A DNA stretch of 63,976 bases, counting the filler, from Chrysochromulina tobinii (Eukaryota), in NCBI GenBank assembly GCA_001275005.1. It is 6 parts of 6 records of this genome, joined end to end, with 100 filler letters (N's around TTAATTAATTAA, not from the genome) between each part and the next. Parts side by side here need not be neighbours in the genome. Positions count along the whole stretch, not along the records: positions 1 to 15,038 come from JWZX01000905.1; positions 15,139 to 32,530 come from JWZX01000909.1; positions 32,631 to 53,744 come from JWZX01000910.1; 3 more parts are not named here. One strand, written 5' to 3'. Of the stretch, positions 3,001 to 52,024 are shown piece after piece. The stretch's first letter is position 1, and the number at the start of each line of letters is the position of its first letter. Below the pieces are notes generated by a model. The model worked only from the letters and a program-made list of their open reading frames with translations, was not told the DNA's origin and did not search any database. The position numbers were made by a program, and so were the translations under genes.

Positions 3001-6000
3001 CAGGTGGCGCTGTCAGTATGGGATCTCCAGGGCTCTCTACACGGCGCGTCGACGACGATGCGCTACCTCTCCGAGAACTCGTTGTTCATGCTGACCGTCC
3101 CTGCGCTCAGCGTGGTCCAACTGACGAGGGAAGGGACGGAGTACGTGGAGCGGTGGCTGAGCTACCTGCGCCACTGCGCGCCGACTGTGACGGTCATTCC
3201 CGTGCTGACCAAGTGCGACATCATCAAGGGGCATGAGGTTGGGCAGGGCGGCTCGTCGGTGCCTCTGAGCCAGCAGCTCGAGAACGCTGCGGCGCCGCAG
3301 CTCGCCTGGTTCAACGAGCAGCTCGACAAGTTTTTGAAGCTGCATGCGGGCCCGCCGGGCACGAAGACCATCAAGATCCTGCGCCCAATCCTTTGTGTGC
3401 AGTCCGTCTCGGGCGGAGAATCGTCAATTGCGCCGCTCAGGGAGAAGCTCGAGGGGCTGATGAAGGGGCCCTTGGAGGAGAAGCCGTTGCCACACGTGGG
3501 CCAGATCGTGACGCGCAACGCCTTCCTCACAGCAGTCTTCATTCGGGCCCTGCGCGATGGGCGCGAGTTCATCGACTCGGCGCGGGCGGCCGACATTGGT
3601 TACATCCCCTCCACGATGTCTGCCGAGCAGAAGAACTCGCCGAAGCCATTTTTGAGGTTCGAGGACATGGCGATGACGTACGTCAACGAGTTCGTGCCCG
3701 CACTCAAGCTGACCGGAGCGGACGAGCGCGTGCTCAGAGACCAGCTGAAGCTGCTCCAAGCTCAGGGCGAGATTATATTGGATCCGACTGGAAGGGTCGT
3801 CTTCCTTGACCGAGAGTACCTGATCCGCATGTTCAAGCCGATGTGCGACTCCCGGTTGGGGAACCGCCTCTGGCTGTCGCGCACGATCGCGGCGCAAGAC
3901 GCGCTGCGCGCCCTCTATGGGCGGCCGCTGTGCACCGAGTTTGAGAAGATTGCGCTGGGCAACTCTGCCGAGAACTTCGAGAAGACGGGTGAGATCCACG
4001 AGGAGCTCATCATCAACATGTGGGACGCGCTCGGGTTGCCGGTGCGCCGTGAGGACTATGGGCAGATGATCTCGATGCTGTGCACCTCGGGCCTCATCTA
4101 CCTCGCGGACAAGGACGTGGCCGGTGGGCGGCGGTGGGTCGTCCCGATGCGAGTGCCCCCTCCGAAGGCGGACCTGCTCAAGGAGCAGTGGCTCAGCGCG
4201 ACCGCCGAGGCCTACGAGAACGAGGGCAAGGCGAAGACGGTCGAGGTGCTCACGATCGCGCTCTCCCTCGGTCGGCTGCCGGTGACCGGTCTGTTCGAGT
4301 CGCTCATCTCCTCCTGCGATGGCTTGGGCTCGTGGGTCGAGAGCTGGCGCACCCCTTCGGGCACGGGCGCCACCCTCAATGCTAAGGCGGTCTTGCCGGG
4401 CGTCTCGCATCTGATGATCGAGATGCGACCGAGGACCACGAGCGAGACGAAGGATGGGCTAAAGGAGTGGGAGCTGGCCATCGAGGGCCTCTGCCCAAAG
4501 ACGACGCGGCGTGACGCGTGGGCCTCGGTCATGTTGATCAAGAGCAAGGCGCAGTCGGTCATCGACTCAATCGTGGGCGTCGCCGAGACGTGCCGCGCTT
4601 CGTTTGTCTGCCCTGGGTGCAAGGGCCTCAAGGACCCCGAGCCGTTCTCGTGGGCGCTCGAAGACGTGCTCGCCCGAGCCAAGACCTGCGAAAAGTGCAA
4701 CGAGCAGGTCCAGCTGAACACCGCGTCGCTCAACAGCGGTATCTCATCGCCCAAACTCCTCGTGATGGAGAAGGCACTCAACTCGGCGCCGCGCGAGATC
4801 AAGGTGCGTGACTGCCTTTGAGCGGCTCTCTGATCTCGCCTCTTTGATCTGCTTCTCTGATCGCCTCTCTGATCGCCTCTCTCTGACGGCCTCTCTGATC
4901 GCCTCTCTGATCGCCTCTCTCTAATCGCCTCTCTGAGCGCCGCTGACGCCTACCGCGAGTGCTGCCCTCTGCAGTTCTGCCTCGAGAAGCTGCGCTTCGG
5001 CCGGCCCCTCGAGTCTGTCTTCCCGTTGCATGTGCTCCTCGGCCTGAACTCACAAGAGGAGATCGACAAGGCTCGAGCCAGTGGTATCGACGGCATCATC
5101 GCCGAGATCATCGCTAAGCCCGACCCCGCGCGCTCGGATACTACGGAGACGCGCAACACCTCGGGCTGGTCGAGCCTCGAGTGGCTCAAGTACGTGGATG
5201 ACCCTAGGATGACCCCGCTGATGCCTCTCTGAGTGCTCCTCTGAGTGTTTCTCCCCCTCTACCCCCCTTGTCGGATGGCAGGTACCTTGCGGGCGACGCG
5301 GCAGAGCTCGCGGTCCAGGCCGCCGCCGCCGCCGCCGGCGGCGCCAAGTCGCAAGAGGAAGGCGGCGCGGCCAAGGCGGTGGCGGAGTCGCAAGAGAAGC
5401 TCAAGAAGCAGGCCAAGGAGCATGGTATCGATGCCGGGCGTGACAGCGTCGACCTCGGCGTCTTCGTCAAGATGCCGATCTGCGCAGCGGCGGGCCTCCA
5501 CCGTGGCCACGTGCTCGCTTTGCGCCTGTACTCGAGTCGGATGGCGCACGCGATCAACATGCCGCTGCACGACGTCTGCTCGCTCGAGCGACCGCACCCG
5601 TACCCCACGCTCTGCGTGCTGCTCAACGACGCGCTCTGGAAGCTGCGCGCCGCGCAGATTGAGCATCGGAATATGTTGCTCAAGAAGGCGGTCGTCCTGA
5701 TGGAGGCGCACAAGAAGGCCAAGGAGGAGGGCGACGACGACGTTGCCGTTCTCAAGCTCGCGGAGGCCAAGGAAATCGAAACCGCCGCGAAGTCGCTCGA
5801 AATGTAACGTCCTGCCCTGAGATGCCCTCTAGATTGCCTCCGAAAGTCCCCTCTGGAGATGGCCCCTGATGATGGCCACTGATCCACTCTGATGACCTCC
5901 CTCAACAGGTACTCGTTCTGGACGGGCGTGAACAACATGGGCCACTACGAGTTCAAGCTGCGAGGTGCGACCGAGGTTGGCTTCTTCTCCGTCGCCAAGA

Positions 6001-6515
6001 CGCGCCCTGATGCGCAAGCGGCGTCGCATCAGTCGCAGCTGCTCAAGCAGATCAAGCACCTCGATGACGAGTTCGACGAGGAGCGGATCCACCTTGCGCT
6101 CGCCCCCGACTGGAAGCGAGGCATCGCGGGCGTCTCGGATGAGACCACCAGCGGGGTCACGGTGGCGGTCCAAAAGGGAGGCAGCCAAGTCAGGGAGGTA
6201 CGTCTGCTTGCCACGGATGGCCTCTGATTGCATTTGATGACGCCTAATCGCCTCGCTCATCAGGTACCCGTCCTCATGTTCAATGTGGCTACGTCGAGCG
6301 ACACGGTCAACCCAACGGACATCTCCTTTCTATCGTGCTTCCCACAGGAGGGTGAGTGCGTTTTTGCCCCGGGCACCTTCCTTGAGCAGACGAAGATTGT
6401 CGAGACCACCTCGATGAACTTCGACGGCGAGTACCTGCAGTACCGCACCCTCGAGGTGGCGCCAACGCTCGGGCGCAACCTGAGCGCCAAGGGGCGCGCG
6501 CAGGCGGACCTGTAA
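1..6515 (+). CDS. Roco-family protein: RNI-like and canonical LRRs, ROC GTPase, COR-like region, Zn-ribbon, C-terminal ADP-ribosyltransferase-like domain (5' end outside the window)
   Basis: Frame is open from base 1. Many LxxLxLxxN repeats; P-loop GHAESGKTT (~2860-2886), WDLQG (G3), TKCD (G4); CPGC...CEKC. Four GT-AG introns (4804-4974, 5190-5281, 5804-5908, 6198-6263) join the downstream ORFs in frame to TAA at 6513-6515. The tail has ALRLYS, HPYP, FWTG, GATEVGFFSV and DISFLSCFPQEGECVFAP. Confidence 0.85.
4804..4974 (+). other. Spliceosomal intron with (TCTCTGATCGCC)n-like internal repeats
   Basis: AAG|GTGCGT ... TGCAG|TTC restores the frame (REIK|FCLEKLRFGRP); ~12-nt tandem units at ~4826-4935. 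Confidence 0.85.
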
Positions 6516-6557
6516 TGAGTGGGGCCAATCGAGCGCTGTAATGAGCGTGGTCATCCG

Positions 6558-9173: not shown

Positions 9174-9963
9174 ATGGTGATCCCGCTACCCCTGCTCGCT
9201 ATGGGCGCGCTTGTGCTCTCGAGCTCCCGGCCTGTGCTGACACGACCGTCTCGATCTGAGCTTGCATCCGCCGCCATCACCATGCGTACCCATCGCCACC
9301 CGCTTCTGTGTGCGACCAAGGAGGCGGTCGTCTCACCATTCGTAGAGGCCGCGCCGGCAAAGGATGCAGCAGCAGCGCCCGCAGCCCCGAATGGCTCGAA
9401 AACGGGCCCGTTGGAGCTGACCTTGCCCAACGTCGAGCTCGTGCTCGACGAAATGCGGCCGTACCTCATCGCCGACGGCGGCAACGTCGCCGTGCGCTCC
9501 ATCGAGGGCGGTGTCGTGAAGCTGGAGCTGCAGGGCGCGTGCGGGTCGTGCCCGTCGAGCACAATGACCATGAAGATGGGTCTGGAGCGCGGGCTGCTCG
9601 AGCGCTTCCCGACGATCGTCTCGGTCGAGCAGGTCGCGCAGGAGGGGCCGGTGCTCGACGAGGCTGGCATCGAAGCGGTACTGCAGGAGATCCGACCATT
9701 CCTCAAGATGACGGGCGGCACGGTGGAGTTGCGCTCGCTCCAAGGCGATGGGCTGCAGCCGACGGCGCGCCTCTCCATCACCGGCAGTGGCGCGACCATC
9801 AACTCCGTGCGGGTCGAGATCGCGCAGCGGCTCAAGCGCAAGGTGTGCCTCACACCCACGCCCAGACGCGCCCAGTGGCCTGCACGCGCAACTGCTCACG
9901 GAAGCGCGCGTTCGCGAGTCTCGCTTGCAGTTCCCGACGCTCGCAAATGTTGAATGGGAGTGA
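9174..9963 (+). CDS. NFU: Plastid NFU-type Fe-S cluster carrier with two NifU-C domains
   Basis: VELVLDEMRPYLIADGGNV...LQGACGSCPSSTMTMKMGLER; second domain lacks CxxC; hydrophobic N-terminus consistent with bipartite plastid targeting; intron 9843-9930 gives the C-terminus RK|FPTLANVEWE*. Confidence 0.92.
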
Positions 9964-22018: not shown

Positions 22019-25000
22019 TCAGGGTCGCTCCTCAGGTTCGTCAGGTGGCTCCTTCTTGATCGGCTTACCCGCTGCTCGGTCGGCCCTTTCTTGCTTCTGG
22101 GTCAGCGGACGCTTGCGCCCAAGCCAATCGCGCCTATACGTCTGCTCCTTCTGGAGCGGCACCGCTGCCACGCCGCCCTCCGCAGCTCCGCCGTCGGCAT
22201 CGTCGCCGCGCTCATAAGCCGCCTTGAGCGAACCTCCTTGGGTGAGGCGGGAGCCTGCGATCCGAGCGACGCTTCCGAGGTCGCGTAACGCCCGGAGCGC
22301 ACCCGGTCTCATCGCGCCTGGCTTTGGCTGGTTGTCGTCCGTGGCGGCGGCGATGCGTCGTAGCAGCTGGCGCAGCGTCGCAAGCTGCTGCGGTGCAAGC
22401 ATGCGCGCGGGTCGCATGAGTCGCAGCACTCCGACTGAGCGAAGCACAGCAGGTGGCTTAGCACGTGCGCCAGTGGGTGCACCCATCGGGGGACCCATCG
22501 AGCTTGGGCGCACAAACGAGCGCAGCGGTGGCGCATCGATGCCCACGTGCGAGCCAGCGCCCGCCGAGTGTAGCTGGGCATGGGACAGGGCAGGCTGCGC
22601 GAGCGTCGGCCGTGGAGGCACGAGCACGCCGATCGGGCCGATCGTGGGGGGGCCCATGAAAGGGGGTGGGCGCATCGGCACGATCATGAGTGCGTCGCGC
22701 GTGCGGAGCTCCTCGGTGGCACGTGCCAGCTGCACCAGGAATCGGAGGAGGAGTGGCCGGTGCTCTTCGCGCACGAGGGGAGCGTAACGCAATCCCACAA
22801 GCCGCGGGTGGCCCGACTCGAGCACGGATCGATCCGGATTCTCCGCGGCTGCCACGTACTGGGCGCACGCGGCGCGCAGGGCGCGACCGAGGCGCAGCCG
22901 CATCGTGTCGTCGGCCAGGACCACGAGATCGATGAGGGAGGGTGCTGCATGTGCAAGCTCATGCCAAAACGTCGACTCAGCGAGAGCTCGGAGCTCGGAC
23001 GTGCGCCGGCGCGCGTCTGCGACGCTGCTCTGACGTCGTCGGCGGCCATCGCCCAGGTCGTCGAGGCCGTCCATTTGGATAGAGCGCAACGCACGCGCCG
23101 CTACCTGCGCCGCCCGCGTGCGGTCGAGCTCCGCCAACGCGGCAGGCAGCACGGCGCGAAGCAGCCCTCCTTCATCCTCGTCCGCCTCGTCCTCGGGCGC
23201 CGTCATGGACGCTCCACCAAGAGTGACTCGTTCTTGTACGCGCTGCGCCCACGTCTTGGCAGCCGCCGGCGTGAGAAACGGTCTGAGCATCGCCGTCATC
23301 GTCGCCCTCCGCTGGTCCGCATAGGCTGCAGCGAGTTGAGCCGCTGTCCTTGGGGCGGCGAAAGCATCGGCGGCTCGGGCGGCGCCCCGGACGGCGCCCC
23401 CTGCAGCACCGCCGCCCGCCCTGCCGCCTTGGGCGCCGCCGTGGGCGCGCTTGCCGCCGCGATCACTCCTCATCGACATCAAGCCCTCTCCCGCCTTAGC
23501 AAGCCACGAGGAAACCTTGGGGGCCACGTACCCTTGCCTAGCCTTGGCCGTCCTGGCCGCCCTGGCCGCCTTTTCCTGACGGGCCCAACGCGCCTCCTCG
23601 GCTTGGCATGCACGCGCAGGTCGGCACACAATCTCGCCTCGAGCTCGTACATCGAGCTCACCTTGTGCGAAGTGCCACGCGCCAACGCACGCGCGCCACC
23701 CGCCGGCACAACGCCCGCCCTGCCGCCTCTGGTGTGCTTGCCACCTCTGCGGTCGCTCGAGGGGATGAGATCTCGCAGCGACGTGCGCCACTTCGCACGC
23801 GTCAGTCGCTGCCGGCTCTGCGCCTCCTCCAGAGACTGAGTGAGCAGAGCGTGCAGCTGACGCACCTGCCGCCGGTGAGCAAGGCGCAGGCACGCCATCG
23901 CGGGCAAAAGCGTCAACAGGAAGAAGGCCACCACAGGCATCAACGTGAGGAGCAGCCGTAAGACCCAAATCTGTGCACGAGGATCTTGACAGAAGGGTGC
24001 TACGGCGGAGTAGCCCGGGACGGCGCCGCCGAGGCAGTCGGGGTAGCCCTCGCTCAGCAGTGCGAGATCAGCGACCGAGGGGCAGCTCGCGCCGCGCCCT
24101 GGGGCAGGCGGGTCCATGGCGTTCGCCGTGCTCGAGTTTCGTGCAGTCCAGAGGGCGGGCGTGGCGTTGATAGAGCCCGTCGCGGCCTGCGCGACCAACG
24201 CACACGAGAGCGGCGACGCACGGGGCGGCGGTGGCGGCGCGAGCGCGCCTGGCACAAAGGGCGGCAGGCCGAGGGCACGCCCCGCCGCATGCGTCGCGAC
24301 AGCGTGAAAGGCAAAGCACGAGTGGCACGGCCCAAGCACGCGCCAGTCGACCAGTGGTGGGATCGCCACCAGGAGCACAATGAGGCGCCATCGGTGAGAA
24401 AGCGACGCGGCCACATAGAGCATACGCTCGCAGCCCGTTTGGTGCGAGCGGAGCCCGAGGAGCCAGACGCAGTACAGCAGGTAAAGCGCCCCGAGAATCG
24501 CGGGCACGTAGATGCCGACCCGCATCGCAAGCTGCCAGACCGGCAACCCATACACGATGACCTCATCAAGCCCAAGGTAGAAGTCGCACACGGTGCTGTC
24601 CATGTAGTAACATGTGGCTGGTGAGGTATCGAATTGCAGCCGCACCGCCTCTATCCATGCCGGTCCGTTCGCAATCTCAACGGAGAGCGGACGAGTGCTC
24701 GGCGCAAGCGAGGCGGCCTCGACAGTCACCTCGGCCACGGTGCAGTTGACGCCGGCCACGAGGCCCGGCGCGCACGCGTCGCCAATCAAAAAGAAGTCGA
24801 CACGCTCGTGGTTGGCGGACCACGTCGCAAAGGCTCGCAGCATCGCGTCCGTGAGCTCCTCGCATGAGACGAATGACAACAGAGTAAACCCAAAGTAAGC
24901 ATACGACTCGACGTCAAAGCGTGGCAGGATCGCGTCGCAAAATCTCGCATCGATCGACCACGAGAGACTGCTACCCAGCCCGGTGGTGTTGGTCGTGCTG

Positions 25001-34577: not shown

Positions 34578-36656
34578 ATGTCGGACTCCCCTTCGACTGC
34601 AGCGGTGCATGCCTGCGTTCATGGCTACGCCGAGGTACTTGGCGGTCTGGTGAGCTCCCGTGCCATCGATCCAGACGGCGCCGACCCTGCGAGCGGCCAG
34701 CGATACTTGGTTGTGGCGGCGCAGCACGGCCAAACCACGTGTGTCCGTGGCCTGCTCCAGAGCAAGGCAAGCCCTGATACACACGATTCGCAAGGAGATA
34801 CGCCGCTCTGCGTGGCCGCCTACTGGGGCCTTGCGGACGTGCTGGACGTGCTCCTAGAGCATGGTGCCAATCCCAACGTGCGGACCCAGAACGGTGAGGC
34901 TGCTCTGCACCGGGCAGCCTACAGGGGCTCCGCAGCTTGCTGCCGCATGCTGTTGGCAGCTTCGGCGGACATCACCGCGCGCGATGCCGAGGGCACGGCG
35001 CTCGACATGGCCACACGCCACGGGCACGACAGCTGTGCGGCCTTGCTCACCGCAGCCTGGATGCCTGATGCGCCCGTGACGGTCACCTTCGAGAACCGCT
35101 CGCCGTGGCCCTTGGTGCTGTGCTACCTGCTCCCCACCCCTGGGCTACCCGTCGGTCAAGCGTATACCCGCCCCCCCGAGCAGCCGACGGTGAGTCTCCC
35201 CCCCGGCGCCAAAAGGGTCTGCTCGACATTCGCAGGGCACGAGTGGTACCTTCGGTCTGAGAGTGATGGCACGCTGCTCGACACGTACATGGTGCGGAGC
35301 CCCGGCGGCGCGCAGCAACAGCATTGCATCTTCCCAAGCCTCGGGTGGGAATGGGAGGACGGGTCGCCTCAGAGCGGTCAGTGGCGCCAGTACGATCCCG
35401 AGCTGCTCCTGCGCCTCTTGCACGCGCATGCATCGGGCCACTCCATGCTCACTGTGCCTGATCCTCAACGGGGGGTCGACTACGAGATCAATCTGACGGA
35501 TCGCACGCAGCGCAATACGCGCACGGGCTTCGTCCGGCGGCTGCGCGCAGTCCCGCCGCCGCTGCCACCGCCACCATCCGCCGCCGAACTCCTCGCCCCC
35601 GGCGCGCCACTCGCGCAACTCAACGCCTTTCCTGGGGACTTTGATACGCCTCCGCCGTACTGGAGCCAACCCGACAGCCAGGACGGCGCTGGCAGCAGCA
35701 GCAGCAGCTCCCCCCCGGTGGTGCGGCGGCTCCCTTCGGGGGGGCTCAAGCAAGAGCTGCGTCCAGAGTCACCCGTCTTTCAAGAAGTACTCCAGATGCT
35801 TCGCGACTCCGGGACGGATCTGGCCTCGCTTCGCCTCTCGGCTATCTACTGCGTCGAGAACCGGGACTTCTTCCGCGAGTACCAGGCGCGTCGGAAAACG
35901 ATGCTAACCCGCCTCGGCCTTCCGCGACTGAACGAGCGCTGGCTGTGGCACGGCACGGACAGGGACTCAATCGACTCAATCCTTGCCAATGGATTCTTGC
36001 GTGACTATAACAATACCAGCGCGCATGGAAAGGGCGTGTACTTTGCCCGGCAGGCGGCGTACTCACTCTCGCGCAGGTACTCGAAGATCGACCCCAACAC
36101 CGGCGAACACTTCCTCCTCCTGTGCCGCGTGCTCGTGGGCGAGGCATGCGTCGGCAGTTCAGGGATGGAGCGGCCCACACGGAAGCCAAACAGCAACGCG
36201 TTGCACGAGAGTATGGTCGACCAGCTACCTGTAGAGCAGAGCCAGATCGTCGTCCTCTCCGCAGGCAGCGACAAGCAGGCCTACCCCGAGTTCGTCCTCA
36301 AGTTCCAGAGCGGAGATGGAGGCGGTGGTGGCGGCGGCGGTCGCGGCGGCGGTGGTCCCGGCGGCGGATTTGGTGGCGGGTTTGGAGGCAAAGGTGGTGG
36401 AGGCGGTCCTGGCGGCGGTCCCGGCGGCAGCTTCACATTTGGAGGCAACGGTGGTGGAGGCGGTGGCGGCGGTGGCGGTAAAGGCGGCGGTCCCAGCGGC
36501 AGCGGATTTGGTGGCGGCTTTGGAGGCAAAGGTGGTGGAGGCGGTGGTGGCGGCGGCGGTAAAGGCGGCGGTAGAGGCGGCAGCGGATTTGGTGGCGGCT
36601 TTGGAGGCAAAGGTGGTGGAGGCGGTGGTGGCGGCGGCGGTAAAGGCGGCGGTTAA
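34578..36656 (+). CDS. Ankyrin - VHL-beta - WWE - PARP catalytic (H-Y-I, mono-ART type) - Gly/FG-rich tail, copy 1
   Basis: Four to five ankyrin repeats; VTFENRS...STFAGHEWYLR (VHL beta); WEWED..QWRQY...YEINL..TQRNTRTGFVRRLR (WWE); WLWHGT, GKGVYFA, LLCRVLVG, QAYPEFVLKF (PARP). Confidence 0.92.
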   Translation: MSDSPSTAAVHACVHGYAEVLGGLVSSRAIDPDGADPASGQRYLVVAAQHGQTTCVRGLLQSKASPDTHDSQGDTPLCVAAYWGLADVLDVLLEHGANPNVRTQNGEAALHRAAYRGSAACCRMLLAASADITARDAEGTALDMATRHGHDSCAALLTAAWMPDAPVTVTFENRSPWPLVLCYLLPTPGLPVGQAYTRPPEQPTVSLPPGAKRVCSTFAGHEWYLRSESDGTLLDTYMVRSPGGAQQQHCIFPSLGWEWEDGSPQSGQWRQYDPELLLRLLHAHASGHSMLTVPDPQRGVDYEINLTDRTQRNTRTGFVRRLRAVPPPLPPPPSAAELLAPGAPLAQLNAFPGDFDTPPPYWSQPDSQDGAGSSSSSSPPVVRRLPSGGLKQELRPESPVFQEVLQMLRDSGTDLASLRLSAIYCVENRDFFREYQARRKTMLTRLGLPRLNERWLWHGTDRDSIDSILANGFLRDYNNTSAHGKGVYFARQAAYSLSRRYSKIDPNTGEHFLLLCRVLVGEACVGSSGMERPTRKPNSNALHESMVDQLPVEQSQIVVLSAGSDKQAYPEFVLKFQSGDGGGGGGGGRGGGGPGGGFGGGFGGKGGGGGPGGGPGGSFTFGGNGGGGGGGGGGKGGGPSGSGFGGGFGGKGGGGGGGGGGKGGGRGGSGFGGGFGGKGGGGGGGGGGKGGG

Positions 36657-37574: not shown

Positions 37575-39723
37575 GTGAACGTTCGGAATCCGTGCAATTG
37601 CTCGTGGGCGTCGCGGGCGTGCGGCCGCGCGGACGGCTCTGCGTGCTGGCAGAGTTGCTGTGGGCCGAATGGTGAAGTGCGGACCCGTAAGCCACGGCCG
37701 CCGCCCAAGCACTCGGTGTGCTTGTTCGTGCTACGGTGGGGTGATTGGCCGCCGTGGGCGCCGCTGCTGCTGAGAACGATGGAGCTCAACCCTACCATCC
37801 GGTTCTTGCTCATGGGCGACGCCGCTCCGAGTGCGGCCTCGTGGCCGTCCAATTGCGCATTTCATCACGTCTCGTTGCGCATGCTGCTTCAGCGCGCGCG
37901 CTCGGCGCTCGGCGCGGCGCCGTCGAGCCTGCCTGTCGCAGGCTCAGCCTCCAAGGTATCCGATCTGAAGCCGATGCTCGCGCATCTGTATCCTGAGCTG
38001 CTCCAGGGCTGCGACTTTTGGGGGTGGATGCAGGAGGACCAGCTCCTGGGCGACCTGCGCGCCTTCCTCGACGAGCCTCTCCTCACCAATCACGACGTGA
38101 TCTCGCCGCTCCCAGCTCCACTCTGGCACGCGGGACCCTTCATGGTCCTGCGGCACACGAAGCCGATCGACGCGCTGTACCGGCGCTCGACGCAGTGGCG
38201 CACCGTGCTTGCTGCGCCGGCGTACCTGGCCTTTGATGAGTGGTGGGGCGCTTCGCTCAAGGACCACATGCCCAAGGTGATGATCACGATGATCTTGATG
38301 GCCTCTGATGGCGACTGAATGAGCCTTGATGGCCCCTGATGACGGACCACATGCCCAAGGTGATCGAGCGGAGGACCACTGGTGATCTTGATGGCCTCTG
38401 ATGAACTCGAATAGCCTTGCTCGTCAGGTTTTTGAGCGGTGATTGCCTCTTGATGGCCTCTTGATGGCCTCGTGATTGCCCCGTGATGGCCTCTTGATGG
38501 CCTCTTGATGGCCTCTTGATGGCCTCTTGATGGCCATGAACGTCCTCACGCATCGGGTTGTCGAGCGGCAGGCGGCCGCCAGTGCAGGAGGAGCACCTGA
38601 TTGCACCTGATTTCATCTGATTTCACATGATTGCAACTGATTGCACCTGATCGCACCTGATTGCATCCGTCATCAGGTTGTCGAGCGGGAGGCGGCCGCC
38701 GGCCGTCTCCGAGCGTACTCGGCGCAGCCGGAGACAGATGCGAAGGTCTGGCTCGTAGACGATTACATCTACGCGGCTCCGGAATCTACCGGTCCGAATG
38801 CGATGGGCGCCGTGATGGGCGCGTCCTCGAGCGGCGCTGCTGCGGCCAACGGCTATCACGGCGCCCATCACGGCGCTACCGCGGCCAACGGCTATCACGG
38901 CGCCCATCACGGCGCTACCGCGGCCAACGGCTATCACGGCGCCCATCACGGCGCTACCGCGGCCAACGGCTATCACGGCCAGCGACCGACGCCGGCGGTT
39001 CACGGCCGCGGCGCGCGTTGGGTGGGCTCGGCGCTCGATACGGCGCGTGGCGTGGCCAAGGAGGACGACCCCTTTCGAACGCAGCGCTGGTATGACGAAA
39101 CGCTGCTCTTCTCGTGGCGACGTGGCGAGGACGGCGTCGGGCGGCTCTGGGCTGGGCCTGGATCCGACGCGACGCGCACGCTGTGGGATGCGGAGCAGGG
39201 ACAGCGCGCCGTGCTGCATTTGATGGCCTCGAAGCGCCTGCCGGCCTTCAGTGCGCTGCGGAATACCGAGCACCTGCGATCCATGGCGGCGCATGCATTG
39301 GAGTTCCATGTGACGAAACACGGGCTGTGGATCAAGACGAGCCGATTAGGGAAGAGCCACACCTGGTTTGCGGGCGGTATGGGGTCAGCACACCTGCTGC
39401 TTCGGTCCGCCGACGTACGCCGCGCGATGTCTCAGATGATGCTCCTCGGCAAGCCGACGCCCGACACGACGCGTCGGTACGCGCGTCGCATGGAACGTTT
39501 GCTGCCGTGTGCGCATGCGGCGCGACGCGACGATGGCAAGCGCCCGTTGCGCGCGTGTGCCGAGTGCCAGGGCGAGGGTGGAGCATCCTCGGCACGAGCG
39601 CGGCACGCGGCTTTCTCCAGCACCAAGCCGTTGACCAAGCCGTGCGACGTCATCAATGTGAGTGCGGTGCTGCCGCCCTTGTGCCGCCGCACCCTCTGCG
39701 CTGTGAGCGCGGCGCTGCAATAG
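37575..39723 (+). CDS. DUF6625-like putative glycosyltransferase with a small N-terminal Cys-rich module
   Basis: WPPW...NPTIRFLL, KVSDLKP, DFWGWMQEDQLLGDL, GPFMVLR, AFDE; intron 38277-38676 joins DHMPK|VVERE. True start unclear. Confidence 0.7.
38277..38676 (+). other. Repeat-filled intron containing copies of the flanking exon ends
   Basis: GT at 38277, CATCAG at 38676; (GATGGCCTCTT)n blocks; exon copies at 38344, 38421 and 38551. Confidence 0.85.
38842..38979 (+). repeat. 39-bp coding tandem repeat (AANGYHGAHHGAT x3.5)
   Basis: Visible directly; in frame. Confidence 0.92.
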
Positions 39724-40900: not shown

Positions 40901-41581
40901 ATGAGTGAAGCAAAAGAGGACGCCTCGAAATCTATTTGGGGCAACTCCTGGCTCCTCCTTTCAGGTTGGTCACAGCAAAACCCAAACGCAATCATAAGCA
41001 TCGATGACGAAAGAGATAGAGCTCGTTCGACTCCGGCCGACGACTCATACTCAAAAACACCAACCTGTTTTGTTAATTTTGTAAATTCTCAAGAGCAACT
41101 CAAAACCTCAGTTTCGTCGCGGTCCCCCCAGTGAGGTCGGCCTCTCCCAGCACACCCGCGCGCACACAGGGTGACCCCTATGGAGTGTGCCGAGCAAGCA
41201 AGTTGTTTCGACAACTTAGCTTGCTTGCTTGTGCCGAGCAGATGTAATGAGATGACACCCCGGCTTTTCAGGTGCTCTCGGCGCCGTCGCAGACATTAAG
41301 GCCAGGGCGATACCGAGGGGCTCTTGGGATTGGGAGAGCGGGTGGATGTACACGAAGATTTGCTTCCCCGTTTCCATGCGTTTCTCATCATGCTCCAACA
41401 CAAATCCAATGCAAAATCCCACATGATCCCACAGGAGCGGAAGTCGAGCACAAAAAACTCGCGAGGCAAACGTCGCCCCAGCCGCGGTGCGCAAGTCGAG
41501 CGCAAAGACGTAGGCGAAGTCTCAGCCGCATCTATCGCCAGGCCCAAGAGTACGAGCCACTCGCGGTGTGTCGCTGGCGAC

Positions 41582-44500
41582 ATGTCGGACTCCCCTTCGA
41601 CTGCTGCGGTGCTTGCCTGCGTTCATGGCAACGCCGAGGTACTTGGCGGTCTGGTGAGCTCCCGTGCCATCGATCCAGACGGCGCTGACCCTGCGAGCGG
41701 CAAGCGGTACTTGGTTGTGGCGGCGCAGCACGGCCATACCACGTGTGTCCGTGGCCTGCTCCAGAGCAAGGCAAGCCCTGATACACACGATTCGCAAGGA
41801 GATACGCCGCTCTGCGTGGCCGCCTACTGGGGCCACGCAGACGTGCTGGACGTGCTCCTAGAGCATGGTGCCAATCCCAACGTGCGGACCCAGAACGGCG
41901 AGGCTGCTCTGCACCGGGCAGCCTACACGGGCTCCGCAGCTTGCTGCCGCATGCTGTTGGCAGCTTCGGCGGACATCACCGCGCGCGATGCCGAGGGCAC
42001 GGCGCTCGAGATGGCCACACGCCACGGGCACGACAGCTGTGCGGCCTTGCTCACCGCAGCCTGGATGCCTGATGCGCCCGTGACGCTCACCTTCGAGAAC
42101 CGCTCGCCATGGCCCTTGGTGCTGTGCTACCTGCTCCCCACCCCTGGGCTACCCGTCGGTCAAGCGTATACCCGCCCCCCCGAGCAGCGGACGGTGAGGC
42201 TCCCCTCCGGCGCCAAAAGGGTCTGCTCGACATTCGCAGGGCACGAGTGGTACCTTCGGTCTGAGAGTGATGGCACGCTGCTCGACACGCACATGGTGCG
42301 GAGCCCCGGCGGCGCGCATCAACAGCATTGCATCTTCCCAAGCCTCGGGTGGGAATGGGAGGACGGGTCGCCTCAGAGCGGTCAGTGGCGCCAGTACGAT
42401 CCCGAGCTGCTCCTGCGCCTCTTGCACGCGCATGCATCGGGCCACTCCATGCTCACTGTGCACGATCCTCCACGGGGGATCGACTACGAGATCAATCTGA
42501 CGGATCGCACGCAGCGCAATACGCGCACGGGCTTCGTCCGGCGGCTGCGCGAAGTCCCGCCGCCGCCGCCACCGCCACCATCCGCCGCCGTACTCCTCGC
42601 CCCCGGCGCGCCACTCGCGCAACTCCGTGCCTTTCCTGGGGACTTACTTGCGCCTCCGCCGTACTGGAGCCAACCCGACAGCCAGGACGGTGCTGGCAGC
42701 AGCAGCAGCAGCTCCCCCCCCGTGGTGCAGCGGCTCACTTCGTGGGGGCTCCAGCGAGAGCTGCGTCCAGAGTCACCCGTCTTTCAAGAAGTACTCCAGA
42801 TGCTTTGCGACTCCGGGACGGATCTGGCCTCGCTTCGCCTCTCGGCTATCTACTGCGTCGAGAACCGGGACTTCTTCCGCGAGTACCAGGCGCGTCGGAC
42901 GACGATGCTAACCCGCCTCGGCCTTCCGCGACTGAACGAGCGCTGGCTGTGGCACGGCACGGACGAGAAGTCAATCCCGCTCATCCTTGCCAATGGATTC
43001 TTGCGTGACTTCAACACGCGCGGCGCGCATGGAAAGGGCGTGTACTTTGCCCGGCAGGCGGCGTACTCACTCTCGCCCAGCTACTCGAAGATCGACCCCA
43101 ACACCGGCGAACACTGCCTCCTCCTGTGCCGCGTGCTCGTGGGCGAGGCATGCGAAGGCAGGTCAGGGATGGAGCGGCCCACACAGAAGCCAAACAGTAG
43201 CGCGTTGCACGAGAGCATGGTCGACCGGCTACCTGTAGAGCAGAGCCAGATCGTCGTCCTCTCCGCAGGCAGCGACAAGCAGGCCTACCCCGAGTTTGTC
43301 CTCAAGTTCCAGAGCAGAGATGAAGGTGGCGCGTTTGGCGGCCGTCGCGGTGGCGGCCTATTTGGCGGCGGCTCTCCCTTTGGCGGGGTTGGAGGCAACG
43401 GTGGTGGAGGCGGCGGTGGCGGCGGCGGTCCCGGCGGCAGCGTATTTGGCAACGGCGGCCCCGGCTCTGCGTTCGGCTTTACGCCAGCGCCGGCAGCAAC
43501 CGTCGGCGGCTTTACCTTTGGCCCGAGCGCCGTGCAAGCCGCCGGAGCGCACGCAGCTTTACCTTTCGGAGCAGCCTCCCCCCTCGCCACCGCTGCTCCA
43601 GCAGCGCCCGCCTTCGGCGGCTTCGCCGATGCTCCAGCAGCCCTCCTCGCGGAGTGGGAGGGCTCGAAAGGCATTACGCTGCAGGACGAGACGCGCTCGA
43701 AGACGCATGCAAAGCTACAGTCGCAACTGGCCAAGATGCTTGTGAGGCAGGTCGTGTGCGTGCATTTCTTCGTTTGGGAGCGCGCCGAATTGGTGCTTCG
43801 CGAACTGGCCAGTGCATCGCAAACTGGCCCCGAGGGGGAGCGTGCCGTGTGTGCCACCATCGCCACGCAGGTGATCGATACCTGCGCGACGATGGTAGAC
43901 AAGCAGCCGGGGATGGCGTACGCGCTGTCGGGCTTCGTGCTGCACGTGGGCGAGAGGTGCCCGGTGCTTTGGGAGTGCCTTCTCGCGCGCCTGCAGGCCT
44001 CGTGCTGCTACTGCGTCCCATACTACCCGGAAAAAACGACCGGCAACACGGACGAGTTTAAGAAGCGCCTTGGCTACACGCAGGGTGAGACCAAGAAGGA
44101 CTTTTACGCGCGCATGGCGGGGTACGTGACGCTGTACGCCGCGCTGCTTCAGCAGTCGTCGATTGCCCAATTCCCGCCGCAGTCGGCCGGAAACGCGCTT
44201 TTCGATAGGACCAGACCAGACGCAAAGATGCAGACGCGTCCAGTGCAAGGGGGCTTTGCACCCAAGGGGGTTTCGCCCATGGCGCGCGCATGGGCGTGGC
44301 TCGCCCGGCTGCTCAACCATCCGCCGGGGAACATCACCGCGACCATCCTACTTGCGTTCCTCAAGCCGTGCGCGCGCGCGCTTTCACGCGCTTACCCCAC
44401 GCAATTCTCGAAGCTTTTGAGCTTCCTCCAAACGACTTACTTAGCCAAAATCCGCGGCATGGTCGCTGGGCAAGGCAACCCGGCCGAGGAGGAAGCAGCC

Positions 44501-44641
44501 CGCGTGAACCTCGTGTCGTGGCTCACAGACACGAACGCCCTGCTTGCAAAAGGGGGCCGTGTCCCCGAGCCGAAAGAAGCTGATATGCCAGAGTACAAGC
44601 CGCCCGACGACCTGAGCGACACCAAGGGGACTTTTGATTAA
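41582..44641 (+). CDS. Ankyrin - VHL-beta - WWE - PARP - FG repeats - Gle1-like domain, copy 2
   Basis: Same N-terminal domains as copy 1; FG motifs (GAFG, GLFG, SPFG, SVFG, SAFG, FTFG, LPFG, PAFG); C-terminal LLARLQASCCYCVPYY, KRLGY, FYARMAGYVTLYAALLQ, AWAWLARLLN, ATILLAFLK, QFSKLL match Gle1 C-terminal domain motifs. One uninterrupted ORF. Confidence 0.88.
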   Translation: MSDSPSTAAVLACVHGNAEVLGGLVSSRAIDPDGADPASGKRYLVVAAQHGHTTCVRGLLQSKASPDTHDSQGDTPLCVAAYWGHADVLDVLLEHGANPNVRTQNGEAALHRAAYTGSAACCRMLLAASADITARDAEGTALEMATRHGHDSCAALLTAAWMPDAPVTLTFENRSPWPLVLCYLLPTPGLPVGQAYTRPPEQRTVRLPSGAKRVCSTFAGHEWYLRSESDGTLLDTHMVRSPGGAHQQHCIFPSLGWEWEDGSPQSGQWRQYDPELLLRLLHAHASGHSMLTVHDPPRGIDYEINLTDRTQRNTRTGFVRRLREVPPPPPPPPSAAVLLAPGAPLAQLRAFPGDLLAPPPYWSQPDSQDGAGSSSSSSPPVVQRLTSWGLQRELRPESPVFQEVLQMLCDSGTDLASLRLSAIYCVENRDFFREYQARRTTMLTRLGLPRLNERWLWHGTDEKSIPLILANGFLRDFNTRGAHGKGVYFARQAAYSLSPSYSKIDPNTGEHCLLLCRVLVGEACEGRSGMERPTQKPNSSALHESMVDRLPVEQSQIVVLSAGSDKQAYPEFVLKFQSRDEGGAFGGRRGGGLFGGGSPFGGVGGNGGGGGGGGGGPGGSVFGNGGPGSAFGFTPAPAATVGGFTFGPSAVQAAGAHAALPFGAASPLATAAPAAPAFGGFADAPAALLAEWEGSKGITLQDETRSKTHAKLQSQLAKMLVRQVVCVHFFVWERAELVLRELASASQTGPEGERAVCATIATQVIDTCATMVDKQPGMAYALSGFVLHVGERCPVLWECLLARLQASCCYCVPYYPEKTTGNTDEFKKRLGYTQGETKKDFYARMAGYVTLYAALLQQSSIAQFPPQSAGNALFDRTRPDAKMQTRPVQGGFAPKGVSPMARAWAWLARLLNHPPGNITATILLAFLKPCARALSRAYPTQFSKLLSFLQTTYLAKIRGMVAGQGNPAEEEAARVNLVSWLTDTNALLAKGGRVPEPKEADMPEYKPPDDLSDTKGTFD

Positions 44642-45295: not shown

Positions 45296-48200
45296 TCAAG
45301 GGCGGCGCCTCTCGCTGGCTGGCGGCTTGCCGCCGCCGAGCACGTACTCCAGACTCTTGGGCCAGAGGACGCTGCTCACCTGCCAATCAGAGGTCATCGG
45401 GAGGACAATCAGAGGTCATCAGAGGACGCTGCTCACCTGCCGGTCCGAAGGGCCATCAGAGGTCATCAGGAGGACAATCATAGGTCATCAGAGGACGCTG
45501 CTCACCTGCCGGTCCGCGCCCGTGCGCGTCACGTTCATGATCTCGCGCGGATGGAGGAAGAAGTAGCGTGCGCCCATCTGAGCCGCAGGCCGATCGGTTG
45601 GCGGCGGCTCTGATCTCAGACCCTCGAGCATCCTCTCCATCACTCGCATCGCGTGTTGATCCTCTGCCATCAAGCTCTCCATTTGCCATCCACGGCCGCT
45701 GCCGCCGTCGCGCCCGCCGCCGCCCACCGCCCGCCCGCCGGCGCCTTCGCGATGGGAACCGCCGGCTGCACCGGCTCGTCCGTCCGTGTCAGAATCCGAG
45801 GCGCTCACCTGTGGGGAAGAGGGGGGGGTGGCGCCGTGGTGAGCACTGGCATGCAAGGTCGGCTCGCCCCGTCCGTGTCGGGATCCGAGCCCGCAGAGCC
45901 TACCGATGAGTCCGAATCAGAGAGATGTCATCAGGGAGGTCATCAGGGGTCATCAGGGGTCATCAGGCAGAGCCTACCGATGAGTCCGAATCGGAGACGG
46001 AGACGTCGTCGGCGGGATTGCGCTCGTCATCAGAGAGATCCTCGCCATTGCGCGCCGCGGCCATCATCCCACTGCCACCGCCGCCGCCACTCGCGCCACT
46101 GCTGCTTCCGCCGGCGCCGCCCGCTCGCTTCTTCTTGCGCGCCTTGCCGCTGCCCGATCGTCCCTTGGTGCTCGCATGGCTGTACTCGAGAGTCACCAGG
46201 GATCATCAGAGGTCATCATGGGCCATCAGGGGTCATCAGGGATCATCAGGGATGTCATCAGGGAGGTCATCATTGGTCATCAGGGGTCATCATCGGCACT
46301 CACCTCCCTTCGGAGAGAGCGGCGGCAAGTCGATGGAGATCGTCGAGCTCAGCGGTGTCGTCGTCGAAGGCGGAGGCAAGGGCAGTGCCTTCGGCCTTGG
46401 ACGCTGCCGCCGCCGTCAGAAGCGCGGCTTTCCAACCGCCGCCGCCGCTCTTGCCTCCGCCTGCCGCGTCCACTGCCGCCTTCCAGCCTTTTACCGGCAC
46501 GCCCCCAGCGGCCTCGGCAGCGGCATCGGCAGCGGTGTCGGCAGTGTTGCCGCTGACCAGCACGAGCTCCGTATGCGCCAGCGCCGTATCGAGCACCTGC
46601 ATGCAATGAGGGAGGCCATCAGTGGCGATCGGAGGCGTGAGCGTGGGCGCCGTATCGAGCACTTGCATGCAATCAGGAAGGCCATCAGAGGTCATCAGAG
46701 GTCATCAGGGGCGTGAGCGTGGGCGCCGTTCCGAGCACCTTGGCTGCCGCCTTGGCCGCCTCGGCCGCGGCCGCAGTACAGCCGAGAGGCGGGCGGATGA
46801 GAGGAGTATGGCGACGGTGCTGACAGCCCCTGGCGCGCTGATCGGCGGGTGCCTCGAAGCGAGTCGCTGGCTGATGGCAGCAGGGAAAGTGACCTCGCGC
46901 CTCCGCCTTTTCGAAGACTGGCTCGAGGGGGTGGAACGAACACCTACGGGAGGGTGGGGGGAGATCAGAGGTCATCAGGAGGGTAATCAGAGGTCATCAG
47001 GAGGGTAATCAGAGGTCATCAGGAGGGCAATCAGAGGTCATCAGGAGGGCAATCAGAGGTGAACAGGAGGGCAATCAGAGGTCATCAGGAGGGCAATCAG
47101 AGGTCATCAGGAGGGCAATCAGAGGTCATCAGGAGGGCAATCAGAGGTCATCAGGAGAGCAATCAGAGGTCATCAGGAGGGCAATCAGAGGTGAACAGGA
47201 GGGCAATCAGAGGTCATCATCCGGGCTCGAGTGGGCGGGGCGCCGTGACCGGCGCGCCGTGGCGGGCGCGCACATGTCGAGCTCGCACACGGGGAAGGCG
47301 CTGTCACACGTCGAACAGGTAAGGAAGTGGGTGAGTCCCCACAGCCGCCAATAGGCTTCGCGACTGCCGCCCTTTGCCCGTCGGACCGTCGCGACCCACC
47401 GATGCACGTCCCATTGGCGGTTGGGCACATGCTCGGCGATCACGTTGCCACGGAAGTCGAGCAGTGGCGGCGCGCGAGGGCATTGCTCCCAGTTGCGCTG
47501 GGCGGGCGTGAAGATCCGACTGCAGAATGCGCACCTGATGAAGGAGGCAATCAGAGATCCTCAGTGGCACTCAGAGGAGGGATGTGAAGATCCGACTGCA
47601 GAAGGCGCACCTGATGAAAAGCGCACTCAGAGGGCACTCAGGGGGCACTCAGAGGCCCATCTGATCGTAATAAGAAGCCACTCAGAAGCACTCAGAGGGC
47701 ACTCAGAGGCATTCATGAGGGCCGATCGGTAGAGGGTGCGGAGCGGGCACCGGTGCAGCGTGTTCGCCTCATCAGCGAGGTGCGCCTCGAGCTTCCGTGT
47801 GTACAACCTCGACGCGATCTTGTCCTTCTTGTCGCGCAGCCTCTCGATCTCGTCCGCCTCGAGATGAAGCGCAAGCTCGCCGAGCAGATTGTCCGAGACG
47901 CAGCTCAGGTCGATCGGGAGGCGAAGCACTTCAGCGAGGGCTCCGCGGAGGAACTCGATGCAGTGCTTCGTCAGCGGCTTCATCTGTAGGAAATCCGCCG
48001 AGATGAGCACCGAGATCACCGAGCCCGCATCGAGGATGGGCGGCTTGGCCGGCTGATGAATGTACTCCATCAACCATTCGAAGATGTGCACGTCGCAGTG
48101 GACGGAGATGTCGATCTCATCGACGCGCCGATCGTCGCCCAAATATGGAGCAAAGTAGGCCATGTGCTGCGGCAGCAGGAGCGAGCTCGTGCGAGCAATC

Positions 48201-48802
48201 AGAGGTCATCAGAGGGCATCCGGTGCCATCAGGTGCCATCAGGAGTCATCAGGAGTCATCAGGTGTCATCAGAGCTCATCACCTGCAGCACTCAGTGGCC
48301 ATCAGGTGCCATCAGGTGTCATCAGAGCTCATCACCTGCAGCACTCAGTGGCCATCAGGTGTCATCAGAGCTCATCACCTGCAGCACTCAGTGGCCATCA
48401 GGTGCCATCAGGTGTCATCAGAGCTCATCACCTGCAGCACTCAGTGGCCATCAGGTGTCATCAGAGCTCATCACCTGCAGCAGGAGCTCGCGCGAGCAAT
48501 AGAAATCTCGATTGATCCTTCGGTTATCGTCGCACACATGGATCACGATCACGTCGTCCTTCCGATGGTCATTCCGATCGGAGGGGGCGCTCAGTCGAGC
48601 GCCGTCGTGGGCGCGCGCGCCGGCAGCGATGGTGGGGCTGCGTGGCTGGGAAGGACCCGAGGCGGCGCCCGAGACGGCGCCCGTGACGGTGCCTGCCGAC
48701 GGCGTCACGCTCGATCGCACGGCGCTGCCACCGCACGCCGTTGCCATGCCACAGCTGCCGACGCCGCCAACGCCCCCAATGCTGCCGCCGCCTCCGCCGC
48801 CT

Positions 48803-48837: not shown

Positions 48838-48932
48838 CGCATCATACTCGATGGCAGCCGCACTGCACTCCGGCACATACGTCCGTGGCGCCGTGCCGGG
48901 CACCGTGCCGTTCGCGTCGTCATCGCCGCCGC

Positions 48933-48963
<31 letters not shown>

Positions 48964-49542: not shown

Positions 49543-49746
49543 GGCTCCCGCTGCGCAGGCTTCGGTGTTGTAATGTATGAATACGGGCAGCGCTCACCTT
49601 TCACCAAGTGTGAAGACAAAGAAAAGGATTTCCATGAATTCGTTTCTTGGGAACAGATCATAGCGACTTATCACAATCAAGGTGGCGACCGTAAGACGCT
49701 TCGTCGATTCAAGAAAACTAGGATCCCGACAGGGGAGGATCCCGAT

Positions 49747-50526
49747 ATGCTCGTGCTCGTGTCGCCGCTGTTGCTCGCGCTCCTACGGGAGGCTGCGGGC
49801 GTGCCGTTGCGCGTTCGAGTGCAGTCCCCGACCATGAAGCTTCCGAGCTCAGTCGCTGCAGTCGTGCCCGAGGCCGTGCGTGACCTACCGGTGACTGAGG
49901 CCAATTGGAAGGCGGTTCGCAGCTGCTTTCCCACAGAGGAGGCTGCAGCGAATGCCGTGAAGCTCAACAATGCAATTTTGCTGCCGTACGGCTTCGACGC
50001 ATCCAACCGCGCCGCAAACATAGCGGGCAGCTACAAGGTGCTGCGGGAACTGCTTCAGGACGAGGGCGAGGTCCTCGAGATCATCACGAAGAATCCTGGC
50101 GTGCTCGGGTGCGTGCCTGCGGAGCTGGCCAAATCCGACGCGAACACCATCCGCATGGCAGCGGGCTTCGTCTCGGGCGTCGATTCCGTGCTGGGGCCAG
50201 CAAAGAGCTTCCTGACCGGCCTTGGTTGGTGGGACGAGAAGACCAAGGGCGTGCTCGTCGACGGTCAGCTGCGCGCGGTGGACACGAGCGCGGGAGCCGA
50301 GGAGAGCTCGCTCGCCGAGCTCGAGCTCGAAGAGATCGAGCTCGAAGGAGAGACCTTCCTCTTCGATGCGAATGGCCTGTACAATGGCGAGAAGAACTTG
50401 CTTTTGGCGCAGCGCGGTGAGGAGTGGGACGCAGATCTTGCAAAGGCGCGCCCGGTGTGGGTGCCGTTCGGCACCTGGGATCCCGAGACGCAGTTCTTGG
50501 AAGAGTATGAGGAGGTGGATGAATGA
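49747..50526 (+). CDS. Conserved algal hypothetical protein, probably plastid-targeted
   Basis: Signal peptide MLVLVSPLLLALL followed by a transit-like RVRVQSPTM; KNPGVLGCVP motif; acidic tail. Confidence 0.7.
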   Translation: MLVLVSPLLLALLREAAGVPLRVRVQSPTMKLPSSVAAVVPEAVRDLPVTEANWKAVRSCFPTEEAAANAVKLNNAILLPYGFDASNRAANIAGSYKVLRELLQDEGEVLEIITKNPGVLGCVPAELAKSDANTIRMAAGFVSGVDSVLGPAKSFLTGLGWWDEKTKGVLVDGQLRAVDTSAGAEESSLAELELEEIELEGETFLFDANGLYNGEKNLLLAQRGEEWDADLAKARPVWVPFGTWDPETQFLEEYEEVDE

Positions 50527-50577
50527 AAAAACGTCGTCTATCCTACGCGTCGTCTCGAGCTTTTTGGTACTTTCCGA

Positions 50578-52024
50578 ATGCCGCAGACCTTCTACGTCGC
50601 CGTACTCCTCCTCACCGCCTGCGCTGCTCCAGCAGCTATCCGATCGAAATTTGCTGTCTTCCGACGCCAGCCTGCTTGCAGCGCGAGGACGTCCTATATA
50701 GCGGGCAAGCTCACTTTCGCTGATCGGAAGGCGTTGCTCGAGGAAGAACAGGTGACGCGACTATTTGCGTGGGTGACCTGCGCCTTCCGCGGAGATGAGC
50801 GCTACAATGACTTGAGAGCGGCATTTACCGCGATTTTTAGCGACAATCCTGGGCCGCGTCTCACACAACTCCTGGCCGACGCCATGAAGATGTGCCCTCG
50901 AGAGGATGAGGCAGTCGGAGAGCCCTTCCAGCTCGCCGACCGAGTGCAAGCGTCCTTGGGTGCGATGGGCGCAGCGCAGTGGACTGGCCGATTCAAAACC
51001 CGGCCGCACGCCCTGTTGGATGTACGCGAACTCAACGACGTCGATGAGTGGAGGCAACGGCTATCGCGTGGCGCACGTCGCACGCTTGCCAAGGCCGACG
51101 CGCAGGTTCAGAACTTTGCAGTGACGCTCCGACCCATCCGCGGCGGAGAACCGGCGCCGCACTCGTCGCTTGCGTGCTTTCGTGCGGTGTGCGCGCACGA
51201 GGTTCGGTTGCTTGCTGACGACGCCGACGACGTGCTCGAGGCTCTGTCCGTCGCGATCAGTCGTTACATCGGGACGACTCGCATGGCGGGCGAGGTGAGA
51301 GTATACCGCGACGCGACGACCACTGATGACGTTTGATTGCCATTCATCGCCTCCCTCATCAGGTACGAGAGTACCGCGACGTGCGCACCGGGCGTGTCGT
51401 CGCGATCGCGCACGAGGTAGCGAAGGGAATGCTCGAATGACCTCTGATGACCTCTGATGACTTCTGATGACTTCTGATGACATCTGATGGCCTCTGATGG
51501 CCTCTGATGGCCTCTGATGGCGGTGATGGCCTCTGATGGCGGCCTCTAATTGCCTCCCTCATTAGGTTGTGAAGGGGAGAGTCCTTCGAGGGCAATGGTT
51601 CTATTGCGACGACGATGCGGCGCGCCAGTTTGTGTGGTTCCAGGCCGTCACGGCTCTGGTGGCGCGTGCGATCGAGGACGAGCGGATCGACGTAGTCGAC
51701 CTCGGGCCTAGCGGCTCGGATGCCTTCACGGAACTTAAGGAGCGCTACGGATTCGTCACTGTGACCTCTTGATGAATGCTGATGATGATTGATTGTATCC
51801 CTAAGTAGGAGCGCTACGGATTTGTCACTGTGGAGGACTGGACGAGTGTGGCCTCTTGATGAATGCTGATGATGATTGATTGTATCCCTCATCAGGAGCG
51901 CTACGGATTTGTCACTGTGGAGGACTGGACGAGTGTGGCCAAATATGAGGGTCCGTTCCACTTTTCGCTGGGCGAGAGGCCAAGTGAGCAGCTCACAGGA
52001 TGGCTGGCAGCTCTCGGCAGTTGA
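50578..52024 (+). CDS. GNAT/FemAB (Acetyltransf_6)-like protein, probably organelle-targeted, 4 exons
   Basis: Introns 51295-51362, 51417-51565 and 51740(or 51761)-51895; C-terminal RAIEDERIDVVDLGPSG...ELKERYGF resembles the GNAT_6 motif; stop TGA at 52022-52024. Confidence 0.65.

Follow-up and report, generated by a model that had tools for sequence, protein, structure and literature searches.

Filler-rich introns carrying copies of their own flanking exons in Chrysochromulina tobinii: a likely route of intron gain by duplication of the landing site

How does an exon acquire a new intron that can be spliced out exactly? The question is raised by a window of 63,976 nucleotides (nt) of the freshwater haptophyte Chrysochromulina tobinii, made of six parts of six records of assembly GCA_001275005.1 joined end to end, spacer letters included. 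Fifteen introns in four genes of this window (four in a Roco gene, one in a DUF6625 gene, seven in SANBR and three in a GNAT-like gene) are built on the same short-repeat filler, as a first-pass annotation had claimed for these four genes, and many also contain diverged copies, here termed echoes, of the exon sequence that flanks them. The anatomy of these introns was observed directly, as was splicing for several members of the set, and most of the relatives examined lack them; they are real introns, spliced where tested and mostly lineage-specific, and they join known parts in a combination that we did not find described. Pfam confirmed the Roc/LRR, DUF6625 and BTB_SANBR labels, while the fourth label stands on the name of one homologue (P0178, N-acetyltransferase domain protein), the GNAT exons having no Pfam match. 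Locus L002, which reaches 4.4 kb past the contig end, supplied a held-out set of three filler introns (Best1-3) in a bestrophin-like gene, named from a reading of its translation, with a spliced frame of 397 aa. This brought the total to 18 filler introns, compared with three control introns free of filler, two from the window and one from the L002 extension.

The filler is a CTGAT-rich minisatellite with a repeat of 10-11 bases, and CTGAT occurs in 17 of the 18 introns. All 18 clusters of filler in the window lie within its 15 filler introns and on the sense strand; none was found in about 14.5 kb outside genes, and none antisense. These introns are confined to 4 of 23 genes, where the null gives a mean of 10 and a minimum of 5; 14 of the 15 lie within 450 exonic nt of another filler intron (null mean 3.2, maximum 12 in 20,000), and filler is more similar within genes than between them (p=0.0055). 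A shared 3' end, matching the majority end at 12-15 of 16 positions, was found in 8/18 introns: all seven 3' ends named by the first-pass annotation (5908, 6263, 38676, 47535 on the minus strand, 51362, 51565 and 51895) are intron ends, but the motif is present in about half of the set rather than generally. Beyond these elements the introns have no common body, since none of the 153 pairs among the 18 reaches 80% global identity (best 67%, mean 42%), nor do they have terminal inverted repeats, the longest terminal inverted match being 3-6 nt. The idea of a hairpin or terminal inverted repeat, in which the 3' end would be the reverse complement of the filler unit, was rejected on these short terminal matches and on the absence of any folding excess (z-scores of -1.4 to +1.3 in six filler introns). 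Rfam gave only sub-threshold matches, several of them to C/D-box small nucleolar RNAs through box-like hexamers in the filler, which we judged to be chance, and scans of viral contigs and prokaryote genomes for the filler motifs gave no match. In DNA run X1, 5,343 records match 14.7 kb, which places filler at many other loci without amounting to a copy count. The Emiliania genome reportedly also has intronic repeats of 10-11 bp.

Echoes were evaluated by aligning each intron, unanchored, to its own spliced junction (30 + 30 nt) and to 1,000 random coding 60-mers, the kind of comparison with chance that the first-pass annotation had proposed. Eight of the 18 introns scored above all nulls (DUF1, SANa, SANb, SANd, SANf, SANg, GNAT3 and Best2), with weaker echoes in Best1 (p=0.005), GNAT1 (p=0.009) and SANc (p=0.04). 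Seven of these eight are window introns, so that the earlier figure of at least eight echo introns is right if GNAT1 is counted; the echoes reach 47 nt, beyond the 15-35 nt first given. In the held-out gene, one intron of three exceeded all nulls and another was at p=0.005, and the 3' end of Best2 is a copy of the entire 45-nt upstream exon. Two control introns were null; the third, in the NifU gene, had a marginal junction match (p=0.008), which may be chance or a very old echo.

The splice sites themselves appear within these repeats. In 14/18 filler introns, and in none of the three controls, the donor dinucleotide is repeated at the exon start (permutation p=0.003); these include both non-GT donors, the GA of GNAT3 and the GC of Best1. 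Every one of the 18 has either an AG just upstream of the intron or the donor dinucleotide just downstream of it, compared with 10% of random coding sites. Exact 5' runs, of 0-17 nt, sum to 71 against 33 (p=5e-5). Microhomology to filler at 21 echo ends sums to 39 (null 23.7 for random exon positions, maximum 40 in 500) and amounts to 5-6 nt at the SANa, SANg and GNAT3 echo ends. Internal YAG|G sites at unit junctions, that is, tandem copies spanning a splice site, occur in 7/18 introns. The statement that most sites are (A)G|GT holds by a bare majority, 8 of 15 in the window; AG|GT is found at 6 of the 18 junctions, and the preceding exon ends in AG at 12 of the 18 sites, the other six being without RG.

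The individual introns illustrate different degrees of this architecture. On the plus strand, Roco intron 1 (4804-4974) has filler within ordinary-looking ends and no echo (p=0.58), its spliced reading frame being open and its homologues continuous at the junction; intron 2 (5190-5281), likewise placed by open frame and homologues, repeats the exon start over 4 nt; intron 3 (5804-5908) does so over 3 nt and ends in the shared motif; and intron 4 (6198-6263) combines that motif with a 4-nt exon-start repeat at AG|GT. The DUF6625 intron (DUF1, 38277-38676, plus strand) consists of stacked units, with a copy of the junction at 38344-38371 and copies of the exon start at 38428, the site of an internal CAG|GT, and at 38557-38581. 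In the GNAT-like gene (plus strand), intron 1 (51295-51362) is one 68-nt unit made of a worn exon-start copy (51295-51313), filler and the shared 3' motif; intron 2 (51417-51565) has an 8/12 match to the exon start, a filler array and the same motif; and intron 3 (51740-51895) begins with a putative GA donor equal to the exon start and contains copies at 51740-51763 and 51807-51853, the latter perfect over 47 nt, the filler of its first unit being repeated in the second. The two window controls are at 9843-9930 (NifU, plus strand) and 23576-23661 (minus strand); both are free of filler motifs, as first claimed, and the second has no echo, while the marginal match of the first qualifies its description as devoid of these traits.

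SANBR, on the minus strand, displays the widest range. The 3' end of intron a (48167-48474) duplicates the end of the upstream exon (48199-48167), and its AG comes from this copy. Intron b (47535-47750) starts with a worn exon-start copy and ends in the shared motif, and a near-perfect exon-start copy (47611-47584) follows an internal CAG|GT; at a site where the window exon differs, this echo has the L003 allele of the following exon, as expected if it was copied from the exon. Intron c (46944-47273) is an array of 22-nt units within ordinary-looking ends, and intron d (46597-46738) is a dimer of units that each start with a 16-nt exon-start copy (46738-46723 and 46662-46647), the inner unit being chimeric, part exon start and part intron continuation. 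Intron e (46180-46303) has filler and no echo (p=0.96). Intron f (45809-45977) combines a worn exon-start copy with a younger insert of filler, on either side of which lies a duplication that spans the donor (45923-45860). Intron g (45380-45505) has two units, a perfect 17-nt exon-start copy at its 5' end and a 28-nt junction copy at 45447-45420; its donor and acceptor both lie within the duplicated stretch, in a layout identical in L003. At this intron the protein is about four residues longer than its homologues (45505-45520, minus strand), possibly a remnant of an earlier imprecise event.

Are these introns removed as modelled? The spliced Roco, DUF6625 and GNAT models are open frames and SANBR is open over 888 aa; homologues align through the conserved junctions, introns e-g of SANBR lying in weakly conserved sequence. 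Splice evidence was taken from the boundaries of RNA pieces, the listing of joints being mostly repeat fragments without a true splice joint. An RNA contig of run X16 (record 20) holds pieces 47747-48220 and 46304-46589 at a spacing of 469 letters, which fits the two intervening exons (261 + 205) after 4 and 7 bases of ambiguous position are assigned; the contig thus agrees with an exact removal of SANb, SANc and SANd. Other RNA pieces end at, or within 2 bases of, the SANa acceptor (48166), the SANe (46304), DUF1 (38274) and GNAT1 donors and the GNAT3 acceptor, where pieces begin at 51894 in two runs. Together with homologue length, which agrees with the GA model in all 95 covering homologues (120 aligned), this acceptor points to a GA donor in GNAT3, and 51740-51895 is likely a GA-AG intron. 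GA donors have been described for dinoflagellates (bioRxiv 10.1101/2020.10.14.339549), and we saw no report of them in haptophytes in the literature searched; this and several sources below were available in part, and statements about them extend to those parts.

The same structures recur in other assemblies, with a variable number of units. L003, at 99% protein identity, contains the full set of seven SANBR introns, echoes included; compared with the window it shows 13 differences in 1,970 exon bases and 19 in 1,131 intron bases, 284 window intron bases being absent from it: SANa has five units across the donor in the window and two in L003, and SANc is about 130 nt shorter there. One 96-nt unit is absent from L001, so the number of long units has to be taken with caution; short-read assembly could add to such differences. 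That the echoes are themselves artefacts of short-read assembly, a suspicion fed by L001 and by the fact that no long reads were seen, is scarcely credible: echo copies carry substitutions relative to their own exons, they recur in L001, L002 (100% identical to the window over 15,992 nt) and L003, and contigs of DNA run X1 cross several echo junctions unbroken and without extra letters. Twelve DNA runs also contain 0.92-0.96 of the sampled words, although they may share the source culture of the window; runs X19-X21 (share 0.00-0.02) provided no evidence. Separately, exon 1 of SANBR in L003 (about window position 48690, minus strand) has an 11-base telomere-like repeat in place of five bases, which keeps the frame and adds two codons; it could stem from a telomerase-type insertion into the coding sequence or from a slip in assembly.

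In relatives at 60-83% protein identity these introns are mostly missing, a pattern judged without a tree and to which loss in the relatives could contribute. Alignments run unbroken across all seven SANBR sites in L004, L006 and L008 and across sites a-c in L007 and L013, while more distant loci break elsewhere; L012 and L021 break near site b, a break not shown to be at the site itself. Among proteins on contigs at 77-83% identity, site a is crossed by P0001-P0006 and P0010, sites b-d by P0001-P0005 and sites a-e by P0003. Some of these proteins may be transcripts, but P0003, P0006 and P0010 lose the frame at other places in the way that unspliced genomic calls do. Among the GNAT homologues, 37 of 120 are on contigs of at least 4 kb (NCBI-called ones left out); site 1 is crossed by every one of the 37 and the complete set of three sites by 29, with apparent breaks at or close to site 2 in three or four. 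In Roco, P0277 runs across the four sites, and P0278, near-identical at its end, stops at Roco3. P0278 and P0279 join a stretch near-identical to the Roco C-terminal region to unrelated N-termini, as chimeric assemblies or through exon shuffling. From these alignments, most intron positions look like gains that occurred in this lineage and became fixed. Probably the set is a mixed one, and Roco1, SANc and SANf, with their ordinary-looking ends, may be older introns invaded by filler. The hybrid and recent mechanism of the first-pass annotation thus keeps its lineage-specific origin, its target duplication supplying a splice site and its re-duplication, but not for every intron, and "recent" has to be read as specific to the lineage and fixed: no allele pair with and without an intron was seen, and ongoing gain is not implied.

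By what route might such introns have been made? We consider it an even call that a template switch during DNA repair or replication, from an exon into the filler of an existing and probably nearby intron and back, creates the insert with a variable exon duplication around it, after which slippage stacks units. Variable duplication, microhomology at several ends, the lack of a fixed body and local clustering fit template switching. The duplication, of a few bases to about 45, would supply one splice site: usually the donor would come from the copied exon start and the 3' end would be carried by the insert, while in SANa and bestrophin introns 1-2 the AG would be supplied by the copied exon end. 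Inserts persisting in exons would be those spliced out exactly, selection keeping the usable duplicated splice site, and filler would help in that each unit holds CTGAT, which resembles the branch-point consensus. The direct repeats could then misalign and stack further units; each junction, YAG|GT, would act like a zero-length exon, and stacking would be tolerated inasmuch as either splicing path would yield the same mRNA. From their layout, units could even be spliced one by one. A broader claim, that a transposon-free chain reaction operates genome-wide, existing introns serving as templates for others in adjacent exons of one gene, which grow as arrays of spliceable units joined by zero-length exons, is tentative and on the whole doubtful; it would involve microhomology template switching, or repair templated on the gene's own pre-mRNA, with long duplications donating splice sites.

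Several results weigh against the template-switch account. Unanchored, seven of the 18 introns (Roco1-4, SANe, GNAT2 and Best3) have no long echo, exact 3' runs show no excess over the 18 introns (p=0.43), and at roughly half of the 21 echo ends microhomology does not exceed chance. DUF1 has no filler neighbour, and the within-gene similarity of filler could reflect later homogenisation instead. The 3' motif, 16-20 nt long and common to five genes on two contigs, indicates a common donor rather than purely local copying. Ordinary introns favour AG|G too, only three control introns stand behind the comparisons, and boundaries are mostly based on reading frame and homology, few on RNA. No intron-less allele was found, either in L003 for the seven SANBR introns or among conspecific GNAT proteins (30 of 30 listed, in two clusters of 79 members in total, read into GNAT intron 1), and intron birth therefore has to be read from other species. 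Lastly, P0003, a relative at 79%, leaves its coding frame about the SANf position as if an intron were there, and this position may be older.

Part of this evidence would suit a one-ended non-autonomous mobile element, made of filler and 3' motif, that is moved by an enzyme in trans with variable target duplications, in other words an unusual introner family; that enzyme could be a Replitron-like HUH transposase, or the reverse transcriptase of a LINE (long interspersed nuclear element) working from intron RNA. The 3' end common to five genes is the best evidence for such an element, and the abundance of filler at other loci agrees with it. In addition, Replitron-1 makes variable duplications with one precise and one fuzzy end, a Replitron protein comes from one C. 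tobinii locus (PMC10288648), and marine Chrysochromulina have introners with 4-bp duplications (PMC9860276). We nevertheless find it unlikely, as no two introns are alike at 80% global identity, terminal inverted matches are minimal, filler copies are only intronic, only sense and strongly clustered in genes, and donor-carrying and acceptor-carrying forms are both present. Neither an autonomous partner element nor an enzyme was found, in a survey that did not extend to the whole genome. Older introns of any origin, with echoes due to later mirage-like slippage over splice sites and filler as a lineage-wide intronic minisatellite, would account for the stacked units and length variation, for the position that SANf may share with P0003, for Roco1, SANc and SANe, which have filler and little or no echo, and for the second GNAT3 unit repeating the filler of the first. 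This too we regard as improbable: relatives mostly lack an intron at these positions, and some of them carry introns at other sites, the single-unit GNAT1 and GNAT2 start with an exon copy, the GA and GC donors match their own exon starts, and replacing an old donor would need a precise deletion every time.

Compared with known systems, these introns resemble introners, which co-opt splice sites from target duplications of 3-9 bp and form families in marine Chrysochromulina genomes (PMC9860276), in being lineage-specific, in carrying one splice site and taking the other from a duplication, in having GA or GC donors derived from the exon and in their gene bias. Symbiodinium and Polarella introner classes 4/5 and 6/8/10 likewise have GA donors, with 4- or 8-nt duplications (bioRxiv 10.1101/2020.10.14.339549). 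Introner duplications are, however, short and fixed per class and families are defined by sequence similarity, whereas here duplications range from a few to about 45 nt around a minisatellite body, and the terminal inverted repeats of introners of the miniature inverted-repeat type are not present. Amphioxus mirages (PMC3087553) offer a described precedent for the stacking step: they are minisatellite-like tandem copies of exon-intron boundaries, unstable in number, with AG/GT in the units and normal splicing, and were proposed as a source of intron gain. They concern few loci at old positions, with no filler or 3' motif common to genes in the account available, unlike the filler of C. tobinii, which is common to unlinked genes at positions that mostly look new. 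Tandem duplication of an AG/GT proto-splice segment after Rogers, or break repair with filler DNA, similarly leaves direct exon repeats that flank the intron and donate splice sites (PMC3087553, PMC3296678), both sites in the case of SANg; non-exon filler in every C. tobinii filler intron, however, does not match an intron made wholly of duplicated exon. In gained Drosophila introns direct repeats are not enriched (19/77 vs 26/100; PMC3296678), whereas here the pattern recurs in five genes with one type of filler. Replitron-1 of Chlamydomonas (PMC10288648) shares one precise and one variable end, variable duplication and orientation specificity; it needs RG targets and direct terminal repeats, and the portion available describes no intron formation, while 6/18 C. 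tobinii sites are without AG/GG before the intron and no common terminal repeat is visible by eye.

This intron family was not found in the literature searched, which covered few subscription papers. The available text of the C. tobin genome paper mentions introns once, and not this pattern (PMC4580454); that of a review of transposon-derived introns has no haptophyte passage (PMC11282704). C. tobinii was in the genome list of the PMC9860276 study, and a 2025 screen gave it zero introner families (PMC12130899); the filler motifs are absent from part of the PMC9860276 supplement and from 12 of 14 supplementary files of PMC12130899, although consensus sequences may lie elsewhere.

Some neighbouring features are recorded here in their own right. 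Intron-free paralogues with 93% DNA identity and ankyrin, WWE and PARP domains lie at 34578-36656 and 41390-44641 (plus strand), the latter carrying a GLE1-like domain as a fusion. Between genes, a tandem repeat of five bases is present in two copies of opposite orientation about 1 kb apart (53652-53695 and the L002 extension). Long frames at 60547-62668 (plus strand), which look like a tyrosine-recombinase retroelement fragment, had no Pfam match at E 0.1.

According to a 2025 paper, no mechanism other than introner transposons can account for bursts of intron gain (PMC12130899), and duplication and break-repair routes have had little systematic support (PMC3296678). The echo introns likely mark a way of making introns by duplicating the landing site that published introner searches have not reported for C. 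tobinii. While the origin of new spliceosomal introns is debated, this alga seems rich in young introns with readable duplication footprints, which would escape similarity-based screens. As C. tobinii is cultured, sequenced and present in lake metagenomes, it would allow direct tests of proto-splice-site use, duplication length, tolerance of GA donors and splicing through zero-length exons.

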